This document shows positions 4,318 to 23,875 of a stretch of 45,997 nucleotides of DNA, one piece after another. The number at the start of each line of letters is the position of its first letter. The stretch's first letter is position 1. The notes under the pieces are model-generated. The model was given only the letters and a program-made list of their open reading frames with translations. It searched no databases and was not told the origin of the DNA. This DNA comes from an uncultured Coriobacteriaceae bacterium (lineage in GTDB: Bacteria; Actinomycetota; Coriobacteriia; Anaerosomatales; Anaerosomataceae): positions 1-45,997 of the forward strand of contig CAZGNF010000001.1 in NCBI GenBank assembly GCA_964527045.1. The letters run 5' to 3'. A program made the translations under genes and the position numbers.

Positions 4318-7300
4318 TCGGGCAGGTCCCACCAAGCGCGGGGCAGTCATCGCACACCCGGGCAGTGTATTCCGCAAGCGGCGCGAAGCTGCCGTCCGCT
4401 ATCGCCGAGACAACACGGGTCAGCCCCTCTTCGATGCGGTCCGCATCACCGGGTCCGAATTCAAAGCGCGTTTCGCGACAACCGCGCTCGATCTCCACGA
4501 ACCTGACCGTGACCCGCTTCGCCCCGGCCCTGAGAACCGCCAGCGCATAGCATTCGGCCTGTGAGTGATACCGAGCGGCGGCCTCCTCGGCGGACAACTC
4601 ACCCGAGCCCGTCTTGTAGTCGATGACCGTGGCGTCGTTTCCCGTCCATGCAAGCATGTCGATGCTGCCTTGCAGGAGCGTGTCGCCAAGGGGCACGGCA
4701 AACGGACACTCGGCATGTATCCTGTCGGCGGCTGCCACTGCACGGGCTGTCTCGCTGGAGAGGTAGTCGGCCACCACGGCCTGGAGGCGCCCGAGTTGCT
4801 CTTCACCGAGTCCGTTCGCTCGCGCTATGCACACCAGTCGATTCTGATCTGGCGCCGATCCCGAGACGGAGAGCTGCAGCGCCGCATGAACCGCGCTTCC
4901 GAAGCCGAGCGGTCCCGCAGTATCAGGAACCGAAGGGGTCTTGAGTCGCGCGATGCGGGTCGCGTAGAACTTGTACGCGCATTCGGCGTACACCGACAGC
5001 CCGGTGTACGAGACCGAGCGGGGTTGGCAAGAAGGCATCGCAGGTGCGGGTGCCGTAACCTGTTCTGGCAGCAGGCCGGGCTCGACCTCGGCGCTAGGAG
5101 CACATTCAAGGACTGCCGGAAGCGGCACGGTCGAGATGTGTACTGCCACGGAGTTGTCCGCCCCGATTCGAACCTCGGGCGCAAGTTCCGCTGCCGGCCC
5201 CGCGATCTGCGCGGCACGACGCAGGCGATCGATGTCGCACCGTCCTTCGGACTGCTTTGAGACGTCAACAGACGCGCTGAGGATGAGACACTCCCGAGCC
5301 CGGGTGCAGGCGACGTACAGGAGCCGGTCGGCCTCTGCCAGCTCCTCTGAGGCGTCGATCTCCTTCAGCTCTGTGAACGCGGCACTCTCGATCGATGTGC
5401 CGTCCGCAAAGAGGGTTCTTGGGACCTTGACGGCCAAGAGCGGCTCCTGCCCTCTGCCGACAAGCGCCTCGCCACACCCTCCGTCGCCACCAGACGCCAG
5501 GTTCCCGACCACAACGACGGGGAACTCGAGCCCCTTCGCCGCGTGCACACTCATGATCCTCACCGCGTCGATGCCCTCACCTGTGAGGGTTGCCTGCTTC
5601 TCGGGTGAGAGATCACGGTGCAGGGCAACGTGTTTGAGGAATCCGCCGAGGTCGCCTGATGAGCGCTGCTCGTATTCTTCGGCAAGCCGGCCAAGCTTGA
5701 GCACGTTGGCCCAGGCACGGGGGCCGCTCGGCCCTGACGCGAACAAGACCAGGTCATAGTCGAGGAGCTCGCACGCCTCATGGATAAGCTCCGCGATACC
5801 GCGCTTTCCGCGACTGCGTCGAAGCGTCTGGATTGTCGCAATCACACGGCTCACTGCAACCAACTCGTGCGCTGACGCATCGAGCCCCTCGGATCGCATG
5901 AGCGCGTCCCAGAGACACGTCGGGCCATCCATGGTCGCCAGCCGGTACATCGTGAGTTCCTGGAGCGCGACCATCCGACCCGCCAGGACCTTCATCAACG
6001 CCTCATCATTGCGCGGGTTGTCGATGACGGAGAGCAGCGCGATCACTTCGTCGACCTCCGCGCGATCGAAGTACGTGCCTCCCGATGCAACGTAGACGTC
6101 GAACCCCTCGGCCACCAACGCGGCTTCGACCAGCTCAGCCCGTCCCTGCATCGCTCGCAAGAGGACGACCATGTCGCCCTGTGGCGCGCCGCCAGCACGC
6201 AATGCGGCCAGCCGCTGCGCGATTGACGCCGCCTCCATGGCGCGTTTGGCTTCAGCCTTCTGCCCCTGCGCATCCGTTAGCAGGAACTGGACTCGTGACT
6301 CAGCTTCTGGCCAAGGATATGGTTCTCGCTCCTCCCGCATAGCTGCGAGCCGGACGAAGTCGTCACCAAAGAAGGTTGCGCTGTCGAACAGTTCGTTGAT
6401 GGCGCCAATCACGTCTCTGTGAGAGCGGTAGTTCGCTTTGAGCACGCTCACCGATGGCGCCTGCTCGGCCAGGGTCCGAAAGACGCTCACGTCCGCGTGA
6501 CGGAACCTGTAGATGGACTGCTTGTCATCACCCACGGTGAGCAGATCGTTTGCTGAGAGAGCTTTAGCGATGCGCAGCTGCAGCGCGTTGGTGTCTTGAA
6601 ACTCATCGATCATGACGAGCTTGAATGCGTCCTGGTACCGGGCGGCGATGTCCGGCTGAGACTCAAGCAGCGCAGCCGTCTTGAGTTGCAGGTCCTCGAA
6701 ATCGAGAACGCCACGTTCGGCTTTGGCGGCTTCGTAGGACAGATCGAACGCATCGATCACGCGCAGCAAGGCTTGCTCGTATGGCGATGCGATGATCTGC
6801 GCGACCTGTGCCCTCACAAGCGCGACCAGCCCCTTCGCGGACTCCGCGAGCTCCTTGACCTCCTGCGAGCCACGTTTGTGGAACGCAGCGTCATTGAGGG
6901 CCTCGGCGACGCGGCGAGCGACGACCTGTTTGTCCTCGGCCTGGTCCAGCGCGGCGAGTGCGTCTGCGCATGCCCGCGCCGAGCGCGCGCCTGAGTCTGT
7001 CGTCTGCGTGGATCCGAGCGCTCCGTACGAGCCCGAGAGTCCCTCGAATTCGGAGCGCCATTCCTGCAGGCACCGTCCAGACGGCTCCTCGGCACTACGC
7101 AGCTCCGCGACGCTGCGCCCCATCGAGCGGAGCGCCCCGTGGACCCGCGACACCATCGAGGCGACACGTGATGCACCGAAGTCGATGATGAGCCGTTCGA
7201 TAGCCTTGTCTGACTCCATGAGCGTGCGCGCTGCTGCCTCAAACGCCTCCTGCTCCAAGATGCCGGCTTCGACTTGCGTCGCTACCGAGAACCGCGGATC

Positions 7301-7642: not shown

Positions 7643-10539
7643 CTGACTCTCCCCCCGCATACCGTCGCGGCCCCGCAGAACGTGCAGGCGTCCTTGTCGC
7701 GAGGCCGGACAGCGATGATTCCGGCGCGCATGCCCTCCACGGCCCGCTCGGCTGATTGGATTGCCGCTGCGATGATCTGCGGCAGTTCATCGGCCTCGCA
7801 TACGTCGTTGCCGACAAGCCCGGGGGTTCCAGCCATCTGGTCCGCCACAAAGCCCCTGTCGCCTCCGTACTGCATGCTTCGGTACAGACCGCCAAGCAGT
7901 GGCTTCCCGAGCGCCTCGGCGGCCACAAGGCCGTACAGGGGCAATTGCACGAGCCCTTTGGTCTCCAGGTCCGCCTTCTTGGCAACAGTGGAGCCGCTCT
8001 TGTAGTCGATGATGATGATTCCGGTGTCCGAGGCATCAACGCGGTCGATTCTGCCTTTGAGGAAGAAACTACCAGTATTCACGGCGGGCTGGCCGTCTTT
8101 GGTGTTGAACCGCATCTCCTGTGCGATGGGTTCGAAGCCCGGCAGGAAGGCCGCATCCCGCTCCACGATTCGCCGGCTGCCGATCCTTGCCGCATGCAGC
8201 ATCTCCTCATCATGCAAGGATGCCGGCATCGGACCTGCCGCGAGCACCTCGACAGCGACTACACGATGCTGTTCGATCGCCTCGGTAAGGTTCGCAGGAG
8301 TCACTCTCCCCTGGCCGAGCTCCGCCCTGCGCTCGTAGAATCGCTGGAGGATCTCATGGGCGAGACTCCCCTTCTGAAGCACGTCGATCTCCTGCTCCAT
8401 TGAATCGGGGCGCAGTTTGCGCTCGTAGAACCATGCGAACGGACATGCGAGGTACTTCTCGATGTCACTCGCTGAGAACGTGTCGATTAGGGCGAGTTCG
8501 GCTGCAATCTCCTCGCTGACGCAGGCCGCACGACTCCGCGCCCTGTACGTCGCGTCTCGCGCTCGAGGGTCCGTCGTGTCGCCCTCGGTCGCAGCCGCTC
8601 TCAATCGCCGACGCTCCGCAAGCGGGGCATCCTCGGACTCCGCCAGGTCGCCAAGCTCAAGCTTCCGGACAGGCAGCTTATCACCGTATGGCTCGCCCGT
8701 GACGGGATCACGATACAGATCCAGGAATTCCTCCCACAGGGAAGAAGCGCGCACAGGGCGGCCGTCGTCATCGCATACCATCCGGCTGAGCACGAGACGA
8801 TCGTGCGCTCCGGTGACGATCTGATAGAAGAGCAAGCGCTCGTCTTCAGCGTCGATGCGTGGCCGCGCGTCGATTCCAGCGGCCAAGAGCTCGGCCGTCA
8901 TCGCCGGCGAGCTGAGCGCATCTTCGGCCGGCACAGCGGGAAACTCACCTGAATTCATGCCTGCCAGAATCACCACCGGGAAGCGTCTTGATCGCGCTCG
9001 CTCCGCACTCATGACCTGCACGCTATCGCCGCGTGTTTGGGCGGGCGTGATCGTGACTCGCGTGTTCCTCAGCGCGCTGGCGACTTCCCGAGCACCCCAT
9101 GACCCGCTTCCAAGCGCTGCTATCTCCTCGATCGCCGCCATCACGGTCGACTGCGCTGCAGCATCTACTAGTCCGCCCTCATCGAAGATAGCCGTAGGTC
9201 CGTGAGCCGCCCGCAGCATATCTGCGACCAGCCAACGCCAACCCTCAACAGCAGTGGCATCAACGGGAGCGGCCGCGAGCGCGGCTGCGCGTTCAAGCAA
9301 GAGACGGGTACGTGCGCCAGTTGTCCGCGCGGCTTCAAGGACTTCTCGGCCCGCAGTAACGCGCCTGCGCCGCAGTAGCTCGTCAGCGGAATCGACGGCC
9401 GCCGAATCGGCCCACGCATACCCGCTCCGAAGGAAGCCGAGGAGGTCGATGCGCTCGTGCCCTTCGACCAGGTAGCCAAGCAGAAGTAGGAGCGCGCGTC
9501 CGAGGCCGGTAGCTGCGACACCGATCCTGACATCGAATTCTGCCGGTACGCCCGCCTCCCGGAAGGCGGCCGCAAGACGCGCATGATGTTGCTCGGGGTT
9601 CCGGTACACCACCGCGATGTCTCCGTAGTTACTGCCAGATATTACCAGCTCTTGTATCTCCCGTGTGATCCTCGCGGCTTCGCCGGCAGACCCCGCCGCC
9701 TCAGAGAGGGATACGGCTCCCATCGACACAGGACGCTCAGAGGACCCGATTCCGCCGAAGAGCGCCTCGCCCACGGCGCGCAGCTCCGCATTGCCGTCCG
9801 TTGGCGCAGAGACGTGCATGTGGTGGGCACCCTTGACAGCATCGAACTCAGAGACCACCTTGCATGCCGCTGCGGTCGCCGGATGGTCTTCGACCCAGGT
9901 CAGGGCAACGAAGACATCGCATCCGAGATCTGCGGAGCGCACGATGAAGCGCTTCTGCGCAGGCGTGAAGCTGGCGAAGCGATTGACCGCGAGCACCTGC
10001 GGAACGTCTCGGGCGGTAAGGGTTTCGGCAAGGCGCGCATGCGCCTCACTCGGCTCGATCAACTCGTTCTCGCGAAGCAGGCACGCGTACGCGTCGACGA
10101 GCCCCAGGAGCTCCCTCGCTGCGGGCGTCGTCGCGGACCTGGCGCGCGCGCCGTCCAACGCAAGCGACTCCCCCGCTCTCTGGACGAGCGTCTCCAGTAG
10201 GCGCGCGAATCCCGGGCGCGCTGCTGATCGTGCGAGCACCTGGAGGTTGGCCTGGGACAGTACGCTGCTCAGAGCAAGCATTCGTTGAGTCGGCCGCACG
10301 ATCGATCGCCCGTCACCAAGCAGGTCCCATCGTGTACTCAAATACCGGTCGAACTGCGTGATGGTAAGACCGAGAGCTGAACCCTCTCGCGAGAATTCCT
10401 GCTCGGCGCGCCGAACCTCGGGACCAGACGGTAGCAGCAGTGTGGCATCCAGGCCACGGGCGGCGGCGTCTCGAATCGCGGCGTGCAGTACGCCGGTCTT
10501 GCCCGCATTGGCCGCGCCAGTGACGATCGTAAGTCCCAC
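7639..10539 (-). CDS. addB: AddB-like helicase-nuclease subunit with a RecB-type nuclease and CxxCx5C iron-staple cysteines
   Basis: N-terminal P-loop is IVTGAANAGKTG. C-terminal nuclease is GRIDRVD...IIIDYKSG, QLPLYG. Cys residues are YLACPFAW plus CTFCGAATVC. Start chosen at GTG 10539, preceded by GGAGGGAG with a 6-nt spacer. The track start at 10656 would overlap the upstream ytxH-like gene by 67 nt. Confidence 0.75.
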   Translation of the reverse strand: MGLTIVTGAANAGKTGVLHAAIRDAAARGLDATLLLPSGPEVRRAEQEFSREGSALGLTITQFDRYLSTRWDLLGDGRSIVRPTQRMLALSSVLSQANLQVLARSAARPGFARLLETLVQRAGESLALDGARARSATTPAARELLGLVDAYACLLRENELIEPSEAHARLAETLTARDVPQVLAVNRFASFTPAQKRFIVRSADLGCDVFVALTWVEDHPATAAACKVVSEFDAVKGAHHMHVSAPTDGNAELRAVGEALFGGIGSSERPVSMGAVSLSEAAGSAGEAARITREIQELVISGSNYGDIAVVYRNPEQHHARLAAAFREAGVPAEFDVRIGVAATGLGRALLLLLGYLVEGHERIDLLGFLRSGYAWADSAAVDSADELLRRRRVTAGREVLEAARTTGARTRLLLERAAALAAAPVDATAVEGWRWLVADMLRAAHGPTAIFDEGGLVDAAAQSTVMAAIEEIAALGSGSWGAREVASALRNTRVTITPAQTRGDSVQVMSAERARSRRFPVVILAGMNSGEFPAVPAEDALSSPAMTAELLAAGIDARPRIDAEDERLLFYQIVTGAHDRLVLSRMVCDDDGRPVRASSLWEEFLDLYRDPVTGEPYGDKLPVRKLELGDLAESEDAPLAERRRLRAAATEGDTTDPRARDATYRARSRAACVSEEIAAELALIDTFSASDIEKYLACPFAWFYERKLRPDSMEQEIDVLQKGSLAHEILQRFYERRAELGQGRVTPANLTEAIEQHRVVAVEVLAAGPMPASLHDEEMLHAARIGSRRIVERDAAFLPGFEPIAQEMRFNTKDGQPAVNTGSFFLKGRIDRVDASDTGIIIIDYKSGSTVAKKADLETKGLVQLPLYGLVAAEALGKPLLGGLYRSMQYGGDRGFVADQMAGTPGLVGNDVCEADELPQIIAAAIQSAERAVEGMRAGIIAVRPRDKDACTFCGAATVCGGRVR

Positions 10540-10887: not shown

Positions 10888-11763
10888 CTACGCATTCGCG
10901 CCATCCCCTTCCGGCGCACCGCTCTCAGTGAGAACGCGCATGATTCGCTCCAGATCAGCTTCATCTACGAAGTCGATCTCGATTTTGCCCTTCTTGGCGG
11001 TCTGGCGAACCCGCACGTTCGTTGCAAGCAGTCGCCTGAGCTTACGCGCAACGACTTTGTACGATTTCGGTGATATTGGCCGAGGCGTGCGCTCACCTTG
11101 GCCAGCGGCCATCAGCCGGGCGACGTTCTCGGCGTCTCTAACCGACAGTCCTTCTTCGACGATCTTGTGAGCGAGCCGGATGCGCTGTGTTTCCTCTGGC
11201 ACGGACAGAACTGCACGCGCGTGGCCAGCTGTTAGCTTGTTGTCGTACATGAGCTCTTGAACCTCTTCAGGGAGATCGAGGAGGCGGAGTGAGTTCGTTA
11301 CGCCCGATCGTGACTTCGACACTCGGTCAGCGAGCTCAGCCTGTGTCATCGAGTACTCTTCGATGAGGCGCTTGAAGCCGCGGGCCTCTTCGATTGCGTT
11401 GAGGTCCTGGCGTTGAAGGTTCTCGATTAGGGCCAGTGCGAGCGACTCCGTCTCGGTAGACGCCATCACACGGACGGGGACCTTCGTGAGTCCGGCGGCC
11501 CGTGATGCCCTCCAGCGGCGCTCACCGGCGATAATCTGATACCCCTCGGCATGCGGCCGGACGATAATGGGCTGCAGTACGCCGACTTTGGCGATCGAGT
11601 CCGCAAGTTCGTCGATGCCATCCTCGTCCATTGCGGTGCGGGGCTGGTTAGGATTCGGGGAGATGAGCTCGATCGGAAGCTCCTGGGGCTCCCCGCCGAC
11701 GAATTCCTGCCCGGCTCCCGGAATCAGGGCTGAGAGCCCCCGTCCAAGTCCACGCTTAGCCAC
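10888..11763 (-). CDS. parB: Chromosome partitioning protein ParB (Spo0J)
   Basis: MAKRGLGRGLSALIPG start, IPIELISPNPNQPR box, GERRWRA motif and HTH region. The GTG start overlaps the parA stop by 8 nt. Confidence 0.93.
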   Translation of the reverse strand: MAKRGLGRGLSALIPGAGQEFVGGEPQELPIELISPNPNQPRTAMDEDGIDELADSIAKVGVLQPIIVRPHAEGYQIIAGERRWRASRAAGLTKVPVRVMASTETESLALALIENLQRQDLNAIEEARGFKRLIEEYSMTQAELADRVSKSRSGVTNSLRLLDLPEEVQELMYDNKLTAGHARAVLSVPEETQRIRLAHKIVEEGLSVRDAENVARLMAAGQGERTPRPISPKSYKVVARKLRRLLATNVRVRQTAKKGKIEIDFVDEADLERIMRVLTESGAPEGDGANA

Positions 11764-12568
11764 GGCTGATCACTTCCTTCGCTAGGCTGCGGTACGCTTC
11801 GGCCCCGCGCCCGTTCGGATCGAACAGCGTGATCGGCTGCCCGAAGCTAGGGGCTTCTGAGAGTCGCACGCTTCGTGGAATGACGGTCTCGAACACCGTC
11901 TCGTCGAAGAAGTCCTTCACTTCTTCGACAACTTGCTGCGAGAGGCGCGTGCGACCGTCGAACATGGTCATCAGGACGCCGAACACCTCAAGGCCTGGAT
12001 TCAAGTGCGTCTTCACGAGCTTGAAGCTCTCGAGCAGCTTCGAAAGGCCTTCTAGCGCGTAGTACTCGCACTGAACCGGGATGATGACGCCATTGGCCGC
12101 AGACAACGCATTGACCGTGAGCAGCCCGAGTGATGGGGGGCAGTCGATGATCACAAAATCGAAATCGTCCACTACCGGAGCAAGCACACCCTTGAGCTTC
12201 GTCTCGCGGCTGAACGCTGAGACGAGTTCGATTTCTGCCCCCGCGAGCTGGATGGTGGCCGGCACCACGAACACATTCGGCACCTCCACTGGCTCGATGA
12301 GCCCCGCAATCGGGGTATCGCCGAGTAGCGCGTTGTAGACGCACTCTTCGCGCTGGTTCTTGTCGAGACCAAAGCCTGAAGTCGCATTTCCTTGAGGATC
12401 CAGGTCAACAAGAAGGACCTTGGTGCCGGCTTCACCAAGGGCGGCGGTAAGGTTGACGGCAGTTGTGCTCTTTCCGACACCGCCCTTTTGGTTCACAACG
12501 GCCAATACGCGCGTCGGATGAGACCTGCCACCTCGGCTCTGCGATCCAGACACAGGTGTATCGGACAC
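11756..12568 (-). CDS. parA: Chromosome partitioning ATPase ParA/Soj
   Basis: Deviant Walker A is VVNQKGGVGKSTTAVNL, with DLDPQGN and IIDCPPSLG blocks. I prefer GTG 12568, preceded by GGAGGAGG, to the TTG at 12583 used by the track. Confidence 0.9.
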   Translation of the reverse strand: MSDTPVSGSQSRGGRSHPTRVLAVVNQKGGVGKSTTAVNLTAALGEAGTKVLLVDLDPQGNATSGFGLDKNQREECVYNALLGDTPIAGLIEPVEVPNVFVVPATIQLAGAEIELVSAFSRETKLKGVLAPVVDDFDFVIIDCPPSLGLLTVNALSAANGVIIPVQCEYYALEGLSKLLESFKLVKTHLNPGLEVFGVLMTMFDGRTRLSQQVVEEVKDFFDETVFETVIPRSVRLSEAPSFGQPITLFDPNGRGAEAYRSLAKEVISRG

Positions 12569-12631
12569 GACGCCTCCTCCCAAATGAATGCTCGTGGGAA
12601 GTATAGGCGAATGAGGACCTCTTGGGAAAGG

Positions 12632-15421: not shown

Positions 15422-15753
15422 TTCGCGCCCCGAGCACGCAAGACCGCTTCACGCAGATCGCGATCGACACTCTCTGCGGCGGCAGACTCAAGGCCAGTTC
15501 GGGCGACCAGCGCCACATCCATACCCGGCCACGGACCCCCAAGTCTGCGGCATGACGCCCGCAGCACACGCTTGCATCTGTTCCTTAACACCGCATTGCC
15601 GAGCTTCTTGCCTGCAACAAAAAGCACGCGTCCCTCTGAGAGGTCGCGTGCTTCTGGTGTTGGTAGGCCCAGGACGAGAACAAGCCTGCTGGTCCCGCGC
15701 CGGCCTTCTTTGAAGAGACGATCGATGTCGGCCGAGGCCTTGATCGTGTTCAT
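15418..15753 (-). CDS. rnpA: RNase P protein component
   Basis: The product from ATG 15753 reads [17 protein letters not shown]...[20 protein letters not shown]. The 48-codon N-terminal extension in the track ORF (15897) overlaps rpmH and is rejected. Confidence 0.88.
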
Positions 15754-15787
15754 CGTGTCCCGTGCCCGCGAAGGGACGGAACCGTTG

Positions 15788-15931
15788 CTACGCAGCGCTC
15801 GGCGTGAGGACGTGACGGCCCTTGCGACGACGGGCCGCGATGACTGCCCGACCGCCTCTGGTTGCCATGCGTGCGCGGAATCCGTGCGTCTTTGCACGCT
15901 TCCGGTTATTCGGCTGGTATGTGCGCTTCAT
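15788..15931 (-). CDS. rpmH: 50S ribosomal protein L34
   Basis: Below the track size cut-off. The reverse complement reads [47 protein letters not shown] (47 aa). RBS is GGAGGA. Confidence 0.95.
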
Positions 15932-15983
15932 AGGATCCTCCGTTCGGGGCGTCCGAGAACACGCCCGGACGACAAGCCTGGTG

Positions 15984-16013
15984 ATTATACTGACACCCCC
16001 TTGTGAGTGTCAA
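15984..16013 (-). promoter_or_regulatory. Consensus sigma-70-type promoter for rpmH-rnpA
   Basis: The minus strand reads TTGACA (16013-16008), an 18-nt spacer, then TATAAT (15989-15984), about 50 nt upstream of the rpmH ATG. Confidence 0.6.
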
Positions 16014-16101
16014 TCACATTCGATCCGAGTGTGCTCTCGCAATGGTTTCCGATACCCCTGTGCTGCTTTCCTCAGTAAGGGCACCAAAATAGTCCGGAAA
16101 T

Positions 16102-16626
16102 TGTGGATACTGTGGAAAACCCAGGATTCACGACTGGCGAACCTGTGGATAACCTGTTGTCGCTCGTTGTCCCCAGGGTGCCCCTCTGTTAGAATCGGCG
16201 CTGTTTCCACAGGCTGTGAATCGGCGTTGTTCACCTTGAAAACGACCTGGTAGGGGCCTCTTACGGGCTCTTGGTTAATCTTGGTATACGGACAGGTGTT
16301 CGGTTTTCCACAGCTTCTTTCACTTCTGTATCTTGTGTTCGCAGCACTGTCCACAGAATCCACTGGACGGAAGCGATACTGGGTGGCCTTGGAAGGGCTG
16401 TTATACACCAAATAGCCATCAACCTGGGCTTCTTGTGGATTCGGACATGTGATCGCTGCGAGATTCTCCACAGATGTGGAAAGTCCTGTGGATAAACAGC
16501 AAAACAGCAGCTTAGAGGGTTCCAGGGTTTGTGGCTACAGTCTCGGTGGAGTGTTGTGGATACGGCTTCTAGCAGGGCGTTAATACTTGGGACTTTCGTA
16601 GTGATGTGTTGATAAGTCTGTGGAGC
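16102..16626. promoter_or_regulatory. oriC part I: DnaA-box cluster upstream of dnaA
   Basis: Perfect TGTGGATAA at 16144-16152 and 16487-16495. Six 8/9 boxes: 16102-16110 (TGTGGATAC), 16111-16119 (TGTGGAAAA), 16304-16312 (TTTTCCACA), 16464-16472 (TTCTCCACA), 16555-16563 (TGTGGATAC) and 16607-16615 (TGTTGATAA). Several 7/9 boxes also occur on both strands. Confidence 0.85.
16167..16195 (+). promoter_or_regulatory. Candidate extended -10 promoter reading toward the GHKL-HTH gene and dnaA
   Basis: TTGTCC, 17-nt spacer, TAGAAT, with TGT immediately 5' of the -10 (TGTTAGAAT). It lies 15 nt downstream of a perfect DnaA box. Confidence 0.35.
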
Positions 16627-16642
16627 GAGAGGGGGGACTACG

Positions 16643-17473
16643 GTGAAATCGTTCTTTGATGGAGGGATGTCTGCCACAGCGGGCGGCCAGACAGAGAGCC
16701 TGGCAGAACGCAGGCTCACTGAAACCCCGGCTCTTGCTCCTGTAGATAGAGCTTCAACTGCAAGGGTAGCGATCTATGACTCACTCACCGCCTCGCCTCG
16801 CGTGGAGGACGTTGCGGGTCCCGATGCTCGCTCTTTTGTGGAAGCTTTGTCTTCGCGTGTATATCAGTTGTCCCATGAGCTCGGGGGATCGCTCCCTTAT
16901 ATGGTTATCCGTGAGGTTGTTGAGAACTTGATCCATGCGCACTTTACGGAAGTCGTCGTCACTGTTCTGGATGACGGAAACACCATCAGGTTCGCCGACC
17001 AAGGACCTGGGATTCCAGACAAGGACCGAGTGTTCGTCCCGGGATTCTCTACTGCCACCCATGAGATGAAGTCCGTCATCAAGGGTGTTGGTTCCGGGTT
17101 ACCTGTGGCGCGGGAGTGCCTCACATTCTCAAGCGGCACGATCACGATCGAGGACAACCTTGGCCGGGGTTGTGTTGTCACTGTTCACGTTGAGCCCGAA
17201 CCCTTGCCTTCTGATGATTCTGATATCCCTGCGATGAATGAGTCGCCGGCTCCGCGGTTGACCCTGCGGCAGAAGCAAGTGTTGTCCTTGGTGCTCGAAA
17301 TGGGATCCATAGGACCTTCGATTGTTTCAAAAGAACTTGGTGTTGGTCTCTCTACCGCGTACCGCGACCTCGCATCCTTGGAGGATTGCGGACTGATCGT
17401 GTCAGATGAGAACGGGAAGCGAGTGTTGGCTCCAATGGGTGCTGAGTCGCTGGACTCGCTCTTCAACAACTGA
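16643..17473 (+). CDS. GHKL (histidine-kinase-like) ATPase domain fused to a C-terminal winged-HTH-like module; no His-phosphotransfer domain; function unknown
   Basis: 276 aa, GTG start with a GAGAGGGGGGA RBS. N box is [10 protein letters not shown]1 is DQGPGIP, G2 is GVGSGLPVA. The acidic linker is [11 protein letters not shown]. The HTH-like segment is [48 protein letters not shown]. The gene ends 14 nt before the dnaA start. Confidence 0.7.
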
Positions 17474-17487
17474 TCCGGGGGACAGAC

Positions 17488-18870
17488 GTGCAAGATGTGC
17501 AGGAACTATGGGACCAAACCCTCGCTGTAGTCCGCGGCGAACTTAACACTCCCACCTTCAAGACGTGGTTTGAGAACACGTCCCCGGTTGGTGTCATTGA
17601 TGAGACGTTGGTTATCGCCGTCCAGAATGAGTTCGCAAGAGATTGGCTTGAGACACGTTACTCTGGTCTCTTGTCATCAGCTCTGGCCCAGGTGCTTGGT
17701 CAGCCCATGGGCGTCTCGTTCCGAGTACCCACCGATGGACCAATGCCAGCTGTTGTGGTTGGTGGATCCGTAGAACCCCCCGGAATGCCCGACCTCGAGG
17801 AGGTCGAACAGAAGCGCGTCAAAGAGGCGACTGACGGGGAGTTCAACCCGAAGTACACGTTTGACTCTTTTGTCATGGGTACTTCAAACCAATTCGCTTA
17901 CCATGCAGCCCTGGCCGTCGCTGAAACTCCAGGGGGAGCCTACAACCCTCTCTTCATCTACGGTGGCGTCGGATTAGGCAAGACTCACTTGCTGCAGTCA
18001 ATCGGTCACTATGTGAAGACGAGCTTTCCGCATATGCGCGTGAAGTACGTGTCTACGGAACAATTCACTAATGACTTCATCAACTCAATCGGCAATCGAG
18101 ACAAGAGCCGCATCGAAGGCTTCCGGCGTCAGTATCGAACGAACGACGTTCTTCTCGTGGACGACATCCAGTTCCTCGCAGGCAAAGAGGGCACCCAGGA
18201 GGAGTTCTTCCATACGTTCAACACACTGCAGCAGGCGGGCAAACAAATCGTGTTGTCTTCGGATCGCCCACCAAAAGACATAGGGAGTATTGAAGACAGG
18301 CTACGCAGCAGGTTTGAGATGGGGCTCATAACTGACATCCAGCCACCGGAACTTGAGACCCGTATCGCGATCTTGAGACGGAAGGTTGAGGCGGAGAACC
18401 TCACCGTTCCTCCTGATGTCCTCACCTTCATCGCCGACCGGATCTCGTCGAACATCCGAGAGCTCGAAGGTGCGTTGATTCGTATCGTAGCCTTCAGTTC
18501 TCTCACTCGGCACGCTATAGATACCGATCTTGCCAGGAGTGTGTTGAAGGACATCTTCCCGGAGCGCTCGATCAAGCCTATTTCCATCAACACAATCCAG
18601 CAGGAAGTATGTAAGTTCTATAGCATCAGTAAAGCGGACCTTGTTGGAAACAAGCGCTCCCAGGCGATTGTGTATCCGCGACAAGTGGCCATGTACCTCG
18701 CGCGCGAACTAACAGATATGTCACTACCTAGAATCGGCACTGAGTTTGGTGGGCGGGACCACACGACTGTGATGCATGCTACCGCCAAGATCACGAAGCT
18801 CTTGAATGCTCAACGTGAAGTGTTCACACAGATCCAAACACTCACAAACCTAGTGAAACAGCGTAACTAA
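17488..18870 (+). CDS. dnaA: Chromosomal replication initiator DnaA
   Basis: 460 aa. N-terminal [24 protein letters not shown]+ Walker A is [12 protein letters not shown], with LLVDDIQFL. Domain IV is [12 protein letters not shown]...[16 protein letters not shown]. Confidence 0.97.
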
Positions 18871-18876
18871 CAACCA

Positions 18877-18956
18877 TGTGGATAACATGGGGGTAAGGTG
18901 GGGAAGACCGGACCCACCTGTTGAAAGATTCAACACCTTGTTGAAAGTGTGGATAG
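18877..18956. promoter_or_regulatory. oriC part II: DnaA boxes in the dnaA-dnaN spacer
   Basis: Perfect TGTGGATAA at 18877-18885 and 8/9 TGTGGATAG at 18948-18956. TGTTGAAAG is repeated at 18919-18927 and 18939-18947, exactly 20 bp apart, with an inverted TTCAACA at 18929-18935. Confidence 0.7.
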
Positions 18957-19010
18957 GCGGAGCAGTTCTTTCACACCCTCACCCACAATAGACACACCGC
19001 GAACGACCTC

Positions 19011-19088
19011 GTGTTTTGAGAGATATCAACATCATCAACAAGCCCTACTACTATTACTGTTAGTTGATTATCTAAGAAAGGAATCGGA
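19011..19088. other. AT-rich candidate DNA-unwinding element
   Basis: A hand count gives 27 G+C in 78 nt (about 35%), against more than 60% in the flanks. It contains ATCAACATCATCAACA and CTACTACTATTA runs and directly precedes the dnaN ATG. Confidence 0.5.
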
Positions 19089-20186
19089 ATGAAGGTCTCT
19101 ATCGCCCGCACAGAGTTGCTAGACGCCCTCTCGATTGCGTCAAAAGGACTCTCATCAAGAACCACCCTTCCGATTCTCTCAGGCATTCTCTTCTCGGCTC
19201 AAAACGATGAGCTTCGCCTCAACTCTACGGACCTCGAGATATCGATCAAGACCAGTTCGAAGGCCCGGGTTGAGGAAGCGGGCAGTGCAGTGATTCCGGG
19301 GAAGTTGATCACAGACATCGTGAGGAATCTTCCTGAGTCAGCTGTCACGATCGAGACGACACAGAACGGCGCGACGATCTCGTGCGCTCAATCATCGTTC
19401 GTGGTTAGAACACTCTCAGCTGATGATTTTCCGAAGTTCCCAGACGTGACGCCTAGTGAGATGGTCTCTCTTCCAACAGGTGTCTTCTCCGAGGTGGTTC
19501 ACCAGGTTTCACGTGCAGTCAGTAGGGATGAGACTCGGCCTATTTTGACCGGTGTGTTGGTTGTCGTTGAAGAAGGAACACTTCGTATGGCGGCGACAGA
19601 CTCCTACCGGTTGTGTGTTCGGGAAGTCCCGGTTGAAGGCGTTCTCGGATCGCTTGAAGCCGTGGTTCCCGGTCGGGCGATCGAAGATGTAGCCCGGCTC
19701 GGAGCGTCAGCTGAAGCGATCAAGATAGGGGTCTCTGAGAACCAAGTCGTCTTCGCGTTCAACGAGACGACATTCGTCAGCCGAAGGATTGAAGGATCAT
19801 TCCCTAATCACAAGCAACTCATTCCAAAGGAGTACGTGACGCGGTTGATCATCGGCCGGCAGGATCTTCTTGAGGCCGTGAAGAGAGTCTCGCTCATGGC
19901 ACAACACAGTGCTCCGTTGAGGATGAAAGTGAACGCCACAGATAGGATCCTCACGATCTCTGCACAGACACAAGATGTCGGTGAAGCCACGGAAGATCTT
20001 GAGATCGACACACAAGGCGAGGATGTTGAGATTGCATTCAACCATGCATATCTGACCGATGGTATCTCGGTGGCTGATGGCGACAAGGTCGCAATAGAAA
20101 TCGTGAGCCCACTCAAGCCTGGGGTTATGAAGCATCCCGAGGGCGAAGACTTCATTTACTTGCTTATGCCTGTTCGTCTCGGTTAA
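19089..20186 (+). CDS. dnaN: DNA polymerase III beta sliding clamp
   Basis: 365 aa. MKVSIARTELLDALSIASKGLSSRTTLPILSGILF, DETRPILTGVL, ATDSYRL and C-terminal YLLMPVRL. Confidence 0.96.
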   Translation: MKVSIARTELLDALSIASKGLSSRTTLPILSGILFSAQNDELRLNSTDLEISIKTSSKARVEEAGSAVIPGKLITDIVRNLPESAVTIETTQNGATISCAQSSFVVRTLSADDFPKFPDVTPSEMVSLPTGVFSEVVHQVSRAVSRDETRPILTGVLVVVEEGTLRMAATDSYRLCVREVPVEGVLGSLEAVVPGRAIEDVARLGASAEAIKIGVSENQVVFAFNETTFVSRRIEGSFPNHKQLIPKEYVTRLIIGRQDLLEAVKRVSLMAQHSAPLRMKVNATDRILTISAQTQDVGEATEDLEIDTQGEDVEIAFNHAYLTDGISVADGDKVAIEIVSPLKPGVMKHPEGEDFIYLLMPVRLG

Positions 20187-20196
20187 GCCGACAGGC

Positions 20197-21297
20197 GTGT
20201 ACGTCAAGTCGCTCCGTCTTACATCGTTCCGGAACTACAGCGACCGGGAGATACACCCATCTCCTGGTCTCACTGTCCTTGTCGGGCCTAATGCGACAGG
20301 CAAGACGAACGTGATCGAGGCGTTGCAGATCATCACATCAGGACGCTCGTTCAGGCGACCGAAATGGAACGAGGTGGTGCAGTGGGGTGCCGACCACGCG
20401 ACACTTACGGCAGACATCTCGGGCGACGGGGCAGACAGTAGCGTCGAGATAATCATCAAGTCAGACGCGACCAGATCCTTCCGATTGAACAGGAACAAGA
20501 AGCGGAGGGTGTCAGACGTCACAGGTATCCTTCCTTGTGTGGTCTTCACACCAGAGGATCTTGATCTTACGAAAGGCGCGGCCGAGAAGCGGCGTTCAGA
20601 GATAGATGATCTCGGAGAGCAGCTATCAAAGACGTATGGCGCGGCCCGCAGAGACTACGCCAAAGTCATCCGACACAGAAACGTACTTCTGCGAGAGTGG
20701 CAGGCCTCGGATGCGGATCTGGAGCCATGGGACGTACAAGTCGCTTCACTTGGCAGTAGGCTCCTGGTACACAGGCGACGACTTCTGCGCAGGATAGTCG
20801 AGCGGGCAACCATCGCCTACCAAGACCTCTCCCAGAGCGAATCACTGAGCGTTGGATACATGGACAAATGCGGTGTCAACACAGCATCACTGGAAGAGGA
20901 GATCGAGGTCGACCAGGCCGAGAAAGCGATCCTCGCGTCCTTAGAGGCGAGGAGAAGCGAAGAGCGCGCGCGAAGAATGACGTTAGTGGGACCACACCGA
21001 GACGAGATCTCGTTCCTTCTCGACCATAACGACGCGCGAGCATATGCCTCACAAGGCCAACAAAGAACCATCGCCCTCGCGTGGAAGTTGGCAGAGGTAC
21101 AAGTGGTTGATGATGTCGTCCACAAGAAGCCGATTCTGCTACTTGATGACGTGATGTCCGAACTCGACGAAGATCGGCGCCGCGCACTAACAGGTCTTGT
21201 GCAACAGAACATACAGACATTCGTCTCGACGACCGACGTAGCCCATTTTGACTCAGCGCTCATGAGCGAGGCTTTGATCATCGAGTCCAAGGAGTAG
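20197..21297 (+). CDS. recF: DNA replication/repair protein RecF
   Basis: 366 aa. YVKSLRLTSFRNY, Walker A GPNATGKTNVIEA, signature ASQGQQRT and Walker B ILLLDDVMSELD. Confidence 0.95.
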   Translation: MYVKSLRLTSFRNYSDREIHPSPGLTVLVGPNATGKTNVIEALQIITSGRSFRRPKWNEVVQWGADHATLTADISGDGADSSVEIIIKSDATRSFRLNRNKKRRVSDVTGILPCVVFTPEDLDLTKGAAEKRRSEIDDLGEQLSKTYGAARRDYAKVIRHRNVLLREWQASDADLEPWDVQVASLGSRLLVHRRRLLRRIVERATIAYQDLSQSESLSVGYMDKCGVNTASLEEEIEVDQAEKAILASLEARRSEERARRMTLVGPHRDEISFLLDHNDARAYASQGQQRTIALAWKLAEVQVVDDVVHKKPILLLDDVMSELDEDRRRALTGLVQQNIQTFVSTTDVAHFDSALMSEALIIESKE

Positions 21298-21304
21298 TGG
21301 CCGG

Positions 21305-21865
21305 ATGAGACGCCGAAAGCTCGACAGTATCGGAGACATCACCGATGCGGTCATCCGGCGCGCAGACCCGAAGAAGCACCGTTACACAGCGAGGGTCGCT
21401 TTGGCATGGGAGCAGATCGCCGGGCAGGAGGTTGCGAGGCATACGGTTGCCACCTCGGTGAGGGAGGGAGAGCTCGTCGTCAGCGTCGACTCCGCGGCCT
21501 GGGCGCATCAACTCGACCTCATGAAGGATCGCTATCTGGCTAGTATCCGTTCAGAGATTGGTGAGGGCGTGGTCAGGACCATGCGGTTCACTGTCTCTAA
21601 ACGGGTTGCTCAAGAACACCAACTACAAGATGAGGCCGAGCGCATCTCTGAGTTCTATGAACCAGAAACGACCCCCTCGGTTCCATTGAGTGAGAGCGAG
21701 CGGCTGCAGGCTGAATACATCGCCGAGGCGGTGAAGGACGAGTCGCTGCGCGAAGCCGCCCTCAGGGTGATGATCAAGGATCTTGAGTGGAAAAAGGGTG
21801 CACGGGCTGAGAGCGACCCGCAGGCGCCTTCTGATGGCGCGACAGGGGACAATTCAAGCCTCTAA
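21305..21865 (+). CDS. dciA: DUF721/DciA-family protein in the conserved recF-gyrB position
   Basis: 186 aa. VALAWEQIAGQEVARHTVATSVREGELVVSVDSAAWAHQLDLMKDRYL matches the DUF721 core. Same synteny as Rv0004 in mycobacteria. The C-terminal 70 aa form an acidic extension. Confidence 0.75.
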   Translation: MRRRKLDSIGDITDAVIRRADPKKHRYTARVALAWEQIAGQEVARHTVATSVREGELVVSVDSAAWAHQLDLMKDRYLASIRSEIGEGVVRTMRFTVSKRVAQEHQLQDEAERISEFYEPETTPSVPLSESERLQAEYIAEAVKDESLREAALRVMIKDLEWKKGARAESDPQAPSDGATGDNSSL

Positions 21866-21877
21866 CACTACACGTTG

Positions 21878-21886
21878 TGGTAAAAT
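21878..21886 (+). promoter_or_regulatory. Extended -10 promoter element upstream of gyrB
   Basis: TGGTAAAAT (TGnTAAAAT) lies 73 nt upstream of the gyrB start. The predicted 5' UTR contains a GCGTCAA...TTGACGC hairpin (21896-21919). Confidence 0.45.
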
Positions 21887-21943
21887 GGGTGGGTAGCGTC
21901 AATATGTCGTAGTTGACGCCATTTCCACTCGTCACACCCATAG

Positions 21944-23875
<1,932 letters not shown>

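Follow-up and report, generated by a model that had tools for sequence, protein, structure and literature searches.

Control of DnaA has been elucidated in a few model organisms only, and the factors involved differ in each of them. They include YabA, SirA, Soj/Spo0J, DnaD, Hda, DiaA, SeqA, HobA, CcrZ and regulators of the MtrA/AdpA/CtrA type. To our knowledge, none of these is a GHKL protein or an obligatory upstream operon partner of dnaA. Almost nothing is known of DnaA control in Coriobacteriia (whose members Collinsella and Atopobiaceae abound in the human gut and vagina), Thermoleophilia, Limnochordia and their uncultured kin. Here we analyze a 45,997-nt stretch of DNA from an uncultured Coriobacteriaceae bacterium (contig CAZGNF010000001.1, hereafter the window), in which a gene at positions 16643 to 17473 precedes dnaA and encodes a protein with a Bergerat-fold (GHKL) ATP-binding domain and a C-terminal winged helix-turn-helix (wHTH) domain.

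GHKL proteins differ in the first motif of their nucleotide-binding site. The form E-x-x-x-N typifies the hydrolytic GHL ATPases as well as the GHKL serine kinases SpoIIAB and PDK, in which the Glu position serves as catalytic base, whereas histidine kinases have N-x-x-x-N. We show that the gene in the window belongs to a widespread family that is found beside dnaA, compare its product with the known GHKL classes, and weigh what it may do.

The Gene Is Strongly Conserved and Linked to dnaA

The strongest evidence on this gene is its position beside dnaA. At E ≤ 1e-3, a word-indexed search returned 1144 homologues. When 1.84 billion cluster representatives were searched exhaustively with a profile, 379 clusters (50% identity) were found at E ≤ 1e-30 and 528 at E ≤ 1e-10, beyond which there was a long tail of generic HATPase proteins. 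Carriers are Coriobacteriia (Collinsella spp., including C. vaginalis, and Atopobiaceae), Thermoleophilia, Candidatus Aquicultoria, Limnochordia (Bacillota) and Candidatus Sysuimicrobiota. A genome scan gave 26 loci, 25 of which have the homologue between a divergent rpmH and dnaA; the 26th, from Micavibrio, has 27% identity over the ATPase part only and is an unrelated HATPase protein. A metagenome scan with a 24-sequence family alignment confirmed 504 relatives, of which the best 80, with 42–64% identity, were used.

When these loci were pooled, the next gene was dnaA, on the same strand, in 88 of the 88 that have at least 400 nt of downstream sequence, and rpmH lay upstream in 63 of the 69 that have at least 1.5 kb of upstream sequence. 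The pooled set is somewhat redundant, since ten Collinsella loci are nearly identical and a few of the metagenome contigs are duplicates. Five further loci, from the divergent members P0186, P0403 (a metagenome-assembled genome, or MAG, of Thermoleophilia) and P0408, each have the gene directly upstream of dnaA. The rpmH cluster is absent from L052, L068, L074, L078, L094, L101 and L107, yet dnaA still follows. Indeed, L107 and L108 carry unrelated genes upstream (fucose-isomerase-like and others) but dnaA downstream, and hence the link is to dnaA and not to rpmH. We conclude that linkage to dnaA is obligatory in the relatives examined. Homologues scattered at unrelated loci, which the original prediction had named as a point that would count against it, were not seen in the 88 and five loci. 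Nor does any homologue have an assigned role: the names given to them are "ATP-binding protein," "hypothetical protein," "histidine kinase" and automatic COG labels.

The original prediction, made from the sequence alone, described a well-supported 276-aa open reading frame (ORF) with a GTG start and a strong ribosome-binding site (RBS), lying on the dnaA strand with its stop 14 nt before dnaA; each of these features was found, and dnaA, too, starts with GTG (Table 1). Purifying selection on the ORF is strong. Against seven orthologues with 60–84% protein identity, the proportion of nonsynonymous differences (pN) was 0.10–0.28 and that of synonymous differences (pS) was saturated at 0.70–0.77; dN/dS, where computable, was ∼0.05–0.11. 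The N-terminal sequence MK(S/T)FFD is kept among orthologues, with ATG, GTG or TTG as start codon, and so is the RBS block. That the frame is a chance ORF or a pseudogene within the origin spacer, a view which has only the unusual location in its favor, is refuted by these dN/dS values at saturated synonymous sites and runs counter to the 1144 homologues, the 379 clusters and the invariant catalytic motifs described below; we regard it as practically negligible. The gene is genuine and strongly conserved.

The Protein Joins a GHKL Domain to a Winged Helix

A Pfam scan of the window protein matched HATPase_c over residues 86–185 (E = 1.3e-13, 51.7 bits against a cut-off of 26.4) and, just below its cut-off of 25.6, the TrmB wHTH over residues 209–262 (24.6 bits, E = 2.3e-5). 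Among 57 diverse members of the family, HATPase_c was matched in all 57, HTH_IclR in 45, HVO_A0261_N in 36, TrmB in 35 and MarR in 21, the best wHTH E-values being 1.7e-8 (HTH_IclR) and 7.9e-7 (MarR). Compared with PDB, the family profile matched the wHTH of Lrp/AsnC, MarR, MntR, AspA and Csa3 (E ∼5e-5 to 1e-3). At the family level these profile matches make the winged helix secure.

An AlphaFold2 model of the window protein, built from a 42-sequence alignment, had a mean predicted local distance difference test score (pLDDT) of 77. Residues 1–35 and 192–199 are disordered in the model and both domains are confident, with a pLDDT of 78–93 in the ATPase core and 88–93 in the wHTH. The modeled secondary structure consists of strands 38–45 and 53–59, helices 62–79 and 86–98, the rest of the ATP-binding domain out to residue 183, and a wHTH of the order helix-helix-helix-strand-strand-helix over residues 208–275. 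Residues 38–85, which lie before the ATPase motifs, are conserved (ARIAVYD..P..R.E...Y...GG..PY) and confidently modeled as a β-hairpin followed by a helix.

The ATP-site motifs are motif I (E91-V-V-E-N95), the G1 box (D119-Q-G-P-G123), the G2 box (G148-V-G-S-G152-L-P), an F-box-like PGFSTA and GxxVT180. E91, N95, D119, G121, G123, G148, G150, G152 and T180 are invariant or nearly so in relatives from 84% down to 33% identity; across the 57 diverse members, N95 is invariant and E91 is kept in at least 90%. The protein is a GHKL module lacking the dimerization and histidine phosphotransfer (DHp) domain, and it should bind ATP.

These results uphold most of what had been proposed for the protein. 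Bergerat-fold motifs had been recognized in it, and HATPase_c was indeed matched above cut-off with invariant nucleotide-site residues. The claim that it has no DHp or His box agrees with the absence of HisKA/DHp families from the matches of the window protein and from the 25 commonest families of the 57 members. A C-terminal wHTH-like module is corroborated by the near-cut-off TrmB match, by wHTH families in most of the 57 members and by the modeled topology. The ∼85 N-terminal residues that had been left unassigned proved to be of two kinds: residues ∼1–37 are variable and disordered, as such a description would suggest, but residues 38–85 are conserved and confidently modeled.

In the Collinsella orthologue (L016, positions 5869..7221), which is 450 aa long, the linker between the two domains is a low-complexity, Q/P/M-rich stretch of ∼250 aa, and the same is seen in L014–L022 and L025. 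A linker of this length suggests that the two domains function as flexibly tethered modules. Database entries for the Collinsella gene are often truncated (∼150–340 aa), probably due to assembly or gene-calling trouble in the repeat. Collinsella DnaA is likewise elongated, at 574 aa.

The extreme N terminus is conserved and is followed by ∼30 variable, disordered residues. Cluster representatives begin with MKxFF/Y, with M..(A/D)FYPFV(D) or, in many cases (representatives P0121–P0270), with amphipathic sequences such as MSWFKRLFGG, MNLIKRWFGK, MFSFFSKLLKKFKK, MGIFSRFFGPKK and MALFKFLFGR. MSWFKRLFGG and MGIFSRFFGPKK are nearly identical to what we take to be the membrane-targeting peptides of MinD or Noc. 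The helical hydrophobic moment of residues 2–11 was 0.345, against 0.231 for 10-mers from the proteins' own spacers (Wilcoxon p = 1.5e-7, n = 108). It exceeded 0.45 in ∼30% of representatives; computed in the same way, the Noc peptide scored 0.43 and the MinD membrane-targeting sequence 0.55. Since the motif of the window protein is short and other subfamilies have acidic versions, we regard the conserved hydrophobic N-terminal motif as probably a docking peptide for a membrane or a protein, a lead rather than a finding. A β-clamp-binding peptide was also considered and rejected: the consensus forms of such peptides, QL[SD]LF and QLxLxL, are not matched by MKSFF or by its relatives.

The GHKL Domain Combines Features of Several Classes

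The top Foldseek match of the model in PDB was DIP2311 (3LMM; E = 3.6e-8), with ∼270 aligned columns that cover nearly the full query and both domains. The next matches were the catalytic and ATP-binding (CA) domains of the histidine kinases EnvZ, HK853, CpxA, WalK and PhoQ, with a probability of 1.00 to CA domains. At the sequence level, the C-terminal half of the ATPase domain (ATP lid, PGFSTA and G2 box) resembles the CA domains of kinases such as KinB and CheA. The segment from motif I to motif II aligns best with MutL (PVDVVKELVENSLDA...IRVKDNGTGI) and GyrB, with weak E-values of 0.03–0.2 against PDB. E91 aligns to the general-base Glu of MutL (KELVEN) and N95 to the Mg-binding Asn, while CpxA (LENIVRN) has Asn at the position of E91. 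Motif I would thus be compatible with either hydrolysis or phosphate transfer.

A sensor histidine kinase can be rejected, the protein having no DHp or His box, no response regulator and an E-x-x-x-N motif I. No HisKA-type Pfam family was matched by the window protein at E ≤ 1. H78, the sole His of helix 62–79, is not conserved across the family alignment, and the only invariant His, H98, sits within motif I. A response regulator or sensor domain was not found among the neighbors, which in essentially all loci are rpmH/rnpA/yidD/yidC/jag and dnaA/dnaN/recF. The histidine-kinase equivalogs of NCBIfam all scored far under cut-off, for example 31 against 242 bits.

The SpoIIAB family HATPase_c_2 (PF13581) was not matched by the window protein at E ≤ 1 and is outside the 25 most-matched families of the 57 members. 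Among the conserved neighbors, no STAS, anti-sigma-antagonist or PP2C genes were found. The hallmarks of COG2865 were likewise missing, as the Pfam scan of the window protein gave no match to PF04326 (AlbA_2) or PF13749 (HATPase_c_4).

The Gene Lies within a Predicted Bipartite Origin

The locus is a canonical chromosome origin neighborhood. To the left of the ORF, running leftward, are rpmH, rnpA, yidD, yidC and jag, and beyond them rsmG, parA, parB and an AddAB-like helicase-nuclease pair; the ParA/ParB pair is encoded apart, at 10888–12583. gyrB and gyrA lie to the right of recF. The cumulative GC skew has its minimum at ∼16 kb. Features of the locus are collected in Table 1.

Table 1. Features of the Locus around the GHKL-wHTH Gene (Window Coordinates)
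Feature	Coordinates	Strand	Evidence or remarks
rpmH (ribosomal protein L34), divergent left neighbor	~15788..15931	-	translation
rpmH promoter, perfect TTGACA-18-TATAAT	15984..16013	-	promoter scan 12/12; TGTCAA and GTGATTATA invariant in 8-way spacer alignment
DnaA-box cluster, 8 boxes, ≤1 mismatch	16102..16615	.	16102, 16111, 16144, 16304, 16464, 16487, 16555, 16607
Candidate sigma-70-like promoter TTGTCC-17-(TG)TTAGAAT	16167..16195	+	inside box cluster, facing ORF and dnaA
Shine-Dalgarno GAGAGGGGGG of ORF	16627..16636	+	6 nt between its end and start codon; G-rich block kept in orthologue alignment
GHKL-ATPase/winged-helix gene	16643..17473	+	276 aa, GTG start, stop codon included
N-terminal MKSFF motif and variable disordered spacer, residues 1–37	16643..16753	+	pLDDT <50 at 1–35
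Bergerat/GHKL ATP-binding domain, residues 38–190	16754..17212	+	Pfam HATPase_c, motif residues, Foldseek
Inter-domain linker, residues 191–205	17213..17257	+	variable, disordered; pLDDT <50 at 192–199
Winged helix-turn-helix, MarR/TrmB/IclR-N type, residues 206–276	17258..17470	+	Pfam, profile, model
ORF-dnaA junction	17474..17487	+	14 nt, holds dnaA RBS GGGGGA; too short for promoter or terminator
dnaA, 460 aa	17488..18870	+	immediately downstream in 88/88 loci; Pfam Bac_DnaA on neighbors of divergent members
dnaA-dnaN spacer	18871..19088	.	DnaA boxes 18877, 18948; degenerate boxes 19023–19040; trio-like repeats 19045–19057
dnaN (beta clamp)	19089..20186	+	ORF list
recF	20197..21297	+	starts 10 nt past dnaN end

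The spacer between rpmH and the ORF is non-coding and ∼710 bp long. Counting DnaA boxes at no more than one mismatch to TTATCCACA, we found 8 upstream of the ORF (the original prediction had put at least 8 good boxes there), and 2 in the dnaA-dnaN spacer; the ORF and dnaA contain none. Over the entire window we counted 13, against 2.85 ± 1.58 expected, and none of 100 shuffles reached 13. When the spacer is aligned with those of 7 orthologues, the boxes form the main invariant blocks, among them a pair ∼25 nt ahead of the ORF start, and 77 related upstream regions have a median of 5 boxes per region.

The candidate promoter inside the cluster is the sole plus-strand promoter-like site in 15700–19200, and its leader would be ∼440 nt long. 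Written as TTGTYC-17-TGTTAGAAT, it keeps the -10 element TGTTAGAAT and the TTGT of the -35 element in 8 of 8 aligned spacers. No promoter-like or terminator-like site was found in the scan of the ORF-dnaA junction, and the gap between the two genes is 13–17 nt in the closest relatives (L001–L008) and 15 nt in Collinsella. A dnaA promoter embedded in the 3′ end of the ORF was rejected, as no sigma-70-like site is present and invariance at third codon positions is at most 0.27 in any 15-codon window. The lack of signals in the junction and the low third-codon invariance make co-transcription of the ORF with dnaA the most economical reading. We infer that the two genes are transcribed together from the region that carries the DnaA boxes, and control of that promoter region through the boxes is plausible.

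Two RNA candidates were not supported. For a short leader RNA or attenuator after the candidate promoter, a terminator-like hairpin at 16251–16273 seemed covarying by eye, yet no consensus hairpin emerged there when 8 orthologues were folded with RNAalifold (-0.41 kcal/mol). Rfam searches of the spacer and operon at E ≤ 1 returned only AsdA, at 17959–18036 on the minus strand, scoring 24.7 bits where the gathering score is 52 (E = 0.046). AsdA is a Salmonella antisense RNA to dnaA mRNA; the match, antisense inside dnaA, is most likely due to the conserved coding sequence of dnaA and not to an antisense RNA gene.

The second half of the origin appears to be the dnaA-dnaN spacer. Its degenerate DnaA boxes (ATATCAACA and TCATCAACA) are followed at 19045–19057 by CTACTACTATTAC, which on the minus strand reads TAA-TAG-TAG-TAG and resembles DnaA-trios. 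The most AT-rich DNA of the spacer lies just before dnaN, the best 30-nt windows (starts 19046–19055) being 77% A+T. The pattern (TA[GA])x4 was present in 22 of 72 related dnaA-dnaN spacers versus 0 of 77 upstream regions. We therefore regard the origin as probably bipartite, like that of B. subtilis, with predicted unwinding downstream of dnaA; an unwinding site in this spacer would place the ORF and dnaA together between the two origin halves.

The same spacer holds direct repeats of CACCT(T)GTTGAAAG at 18915 and 18934 (CACCTGTTGAAAG and CACCTTGTTGAAAG; 18915–18947), and a related conserved block, CACCTTGAAAAC, is present in the upstream spacer at 16232–16243. CCT(T)GTTGAAA recurs in 16 of 72 related dnaA-dnaN spacers, and CACCT(T)GTTGAAAG is one substitution away from the local extended DnaA box CCTGTGGAAAA. 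The repeats at 18915–18947 and CACCTTGAAAAC are either weak variants of DnaA boxes or sites for another protein, for example the winged helix encoded by the ORF.

Two small features concern the genes farther downstream. The recF-gyrB gap (21298–21958, ∼660 nt) has no ORF of 200 aa or more and may harbor a small gene, perhaps of the DUF721 type. L109, from a Thermoleophilia MAG, carries a small gene with an S4_2 domain (7670–7933) between dnaN and recF, like B. subtilis yaaA; the window lacks it at that place.

Possible Functions of the GHKL-wHTH Protein

Because of its operon position and architecture, we tentatively favor, much as the original prediction proposed for a regulator of initiation or of dnaA expression, a reading of the protein as an ATP-switched DNA binder, co-expressed with DnaA, that would modulate transcription of the dnaA operon and/or the action of DnaA at the bipartite origin; we rate this at a little short of an even chance. 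The ORF would head a conserved transcription unit, ORF-dnaA(-dnaN), and would be co-regulated with dnaA from a DnaA-box-controlled promoter region, so that the dose of the protein would track DnaA. Binding of ATP would drive dimerization of the GHKL domain, as in the GHL ATPases, and the N-terminal hairpin with ARIAVYD may serve as a dimerization strap. Dimerization would pair two winged helices so that they bind DNA at oriC, at the dnaA promoter or close to either, and hydrolysis of ATP would reset the switch. As output, transcription of the dnaA operon and/or DnaA assembly at the bipartite origin would be modulated, possibly in step with the energy state of the cell.

Several observations weigh against this proposal. 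In Limnochordales and one Coriobacteriaceae lineage the gap between the gene and dnaA reaches ∼96–220 nt (∼220 nt in L023, 96 nt in L024), and in L111 a 60-aa ORF with no Pfam match (4759–4941) sits between the GHKL-wHTH gene and dnaA with its ends touching both; strict translational coupling is therefore not universal. recF, jag, rsmG and yidC are also tightly placed near dnaA, though they are not initiation regulators. A search for an operator of the winged helix, by k-mers in 77 upstream regions and 72 dnaA-dnaN spacers and in the 8-way alignment, gave no clear palindrome; what emerged was essentially derivatives of DnaA boxes, along with promoters, TA[G/A] trios and two short sequences, CACCTTGAAAAC and CACCT(T)GTTGAAAG. 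Dimerization and a strap role for residues 38–59 are suggested by analogy only. Finally, E-x-x-x-N together with a histidine-kinase-like ATP lid is equally compatible with a protein Ser/Thr kinase.

The operator search and the company of other genes also bear on the view that the protein is a passenger of the operon, that is, a housekeeping transcription factor or nucleoid-associated protein kept there, like recF, jag and rsmG, for gene dosage or growth-rate-coupled expression, with no direct role in initiation. The whole block of jag-yidC-yidD-rnpA-rpmH and dnaA-dnaN-recF-gyrB-gyrA is conserved and consists mostly of genes unrelated to initiation control, and no oriC-specific motif other than those of DnaA was found for the winged helix to bind. 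Against this, the linkage is specific to dnaA, outlasts the loss of the rpmH-side context described above, and spans three phyla at 35–40% identity with no exception in the 88 and five loci; moreover, any regulation of dnaA must also reach a gene that is placed between dnaA and the DnaA-box cluster. We consider a passenger unlikely. A still less likely possibility is that a GHKL protein Ser/Thr kinase or anti-factor of the SpoIIAB/RsbW or PDK/BCKDK kind binds a partner, for instance DnaA, a sigma factor or another replication protein, and phosphorylates it, the wHTH serving only to localize the enzyme on DNA. The Glu four residues before the Mg-binding Asn of motif I and the lid with PGFSTA and the G2 box like those of kinase CA domains fit such an enzyme, PDK isozymes are among the weak PDB sequence matches (E ∼0.006), and several homologues bear the automatic JGI label "anti-sigma regulatory factor (Ser/Thr protein kinase)." The missing HATPase_c_2 match, the lack of a STAS, anti-sigma-antagonist or PP2C neighbor, the want of an identifiable substrate, and an N-terminal half that aligns best to the hydrolases MutL and GyrB all speak for something else.

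The N-terminal peptide raises the further question of an ATP-gated tether between origin and membrane, in which, by the logic of Noc and MinD, a weak amphipathic membrane-targeting peptide would gain avidity on ATP-driven dimerization while the winged helices hold origin-proximal DNA. Noc has a conserved N-terminal amphipathic helix, a variable spacer and a weak membrane affinity that needs assembly (Adams et al., 2015, PMC4331003), and a conserved N terminus followed by a variable disordered spacer is the same layout. The many representatives with MinD/Noc-like starts and the raised N-terminal moment also agree with it. However, the motif in the window, MKSFFDGG, is very short, has an acidic residue next to it and reaches a moment of only 0.35–0.51, depending on the frame. 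Acidic versions in other subfamilies (MESFLDRLLADEG and MADAFYPFVDKND) are ill suited to binding membranes and rather resemble peptides that dock onto proteins, such a motif is missing or the start codon is uncertain in about half of the representatives, and the likeness to Noc and MinD is a resemblance only. A tether is therefore improbable in our view. Returning to the ATP-switched DNA binder, a bolder form of this proposal can be put forward, which we think possible but rather doubtful: in basal Gram-positive lineages (Bacillati), the protein may be an ancestral part of the dnaA operon that has so far escaped notice, and a new class of regulator, whose GHKL switch, winged helix and N-terminal peptide act directly on initiation. 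Its action could be ATP-dependent remodeling or bridging of the bipartite oriC, control of DnaA loading, or an origin-membrane tie. If so, it would represent a mechanistic class of initiation regulator that the paradigms of E. coli and B. subtilis lack.

The gene is a concrete and testable candidate for the missing regulator of initiation or dnaA expression in Coriobacteriia and allied groups. Should it prove to be a regulator, a GHKL-type ATPase would join the initiation toolkit, and the supposedly non-coding rpmH-dnaA half of the origin would be able to host a dedicated gene. Should it be only a passenger, it would still represent a widespread unannotated family (∼380 clusters at 50% identity) that merits its own model in place of the misleading labels "histidine kinase" and "anti-sigma factor."

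Comparison with Known Systems

The two domains are known and their architecture has one structural precedent, DIP2311; the obligatory association with dnaA is undescribed. No curated NCBIfam model was matched above cut-off, and neither NCBIfam nor Pfam has a curated family specific for the protein. A search of the full-text literature found no paper describing a GHKL-wHTH family upstream of dnaA. Scans of the window protein with Pfam and NCBIfam returned only HATPase and HTH families and none of the known initiation regulators, in line with the original prediction, in which it was not recognized as SirA, YabA, Soj, DiaA, Hda or any other of these. An anti-phage defense gene was rejected as well, PADLOC having matched only the generic wHTH of Csa3/CasR-type proteins.

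With the DnaA and oriC regulators listed at the outset, the protein shares its proposed role at DnaA or oriC, and with Hda and Soj also the nucleotide switch; in contrast, there is no sequence or domain relationship to any of them. Histidine-kinase CA domains (HK853, CpxA, EnvZ and KinB) provide the best Pfam match and the commonest class of structural match, and share the DxGxG motif, an F-box-like element, a GxGxGL lid and the size of the fold. Unlike the histidine kinases, the protein lacks a DHp/HisKA domain, a phospho-acceptor His and a sensor or transmembrane domain, and ends in a winged helix. SpoIIAB/RsbW and PDK/BCKDK are likewise GHKL domains without DHp that have E-x-x-x-N in motif I, with weak PDK sequence matches and an automatic COG label on some homologues in common; those kinases have no wHTH, however, and the protein has neither the HATPase_c_2 match nor the STAS or PP2C partners.

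The GHL ATPases (MutL, GyrB, Hsp90 and MORC), clamps that dimerize under the control of ATP, resemble the protein in the motif I–II segment and in the Glu at the general-base position, and the conserved segment before the fold could serve as a dimerization strap. They differ in that its ATPase domain leads straight into a disordered linker and the wHTH, with no transducer (S5-fold) domain bearing a γ-phosphate-sensing Lys, and in that its ATP lid is kinase-like. Noc, a ParB-family CTPase, and MinD, both of them nucleotide-gated membrane binders with an amphipathic helix, offer a parallel in layout, with a conserved peptide (hydrophobic or amphipathic) at the terminus, a variable spacer, a dimerization domain that binds nucleotide and a DNA-binding domain (PMC4331003), but the folds are unrelated, the nucleotide of Noc is CTP, and the motif of the present family is short and heterogeneous.

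DIP2311 of Corynebacterium diphtheriae (3LMM), which we take to be a COG2865 putative regulator of the "RecG-like" kind with AlbA_2, HATPase_c_4 and wHTH parts, is the sole solved structure found with the same order of HATPase and wHTH domains. The likeness to it is structural and concerns its two C-terminal domains. It shares only 16–17% identity with the window protein, is ∼555 aa long with a large extra N-terminal part, and is not known as dnaA-linked. The root-mean-square deviation of the alignment is ∼12 Å; hence the two proteins share the order of their domains but not their relative orientation.

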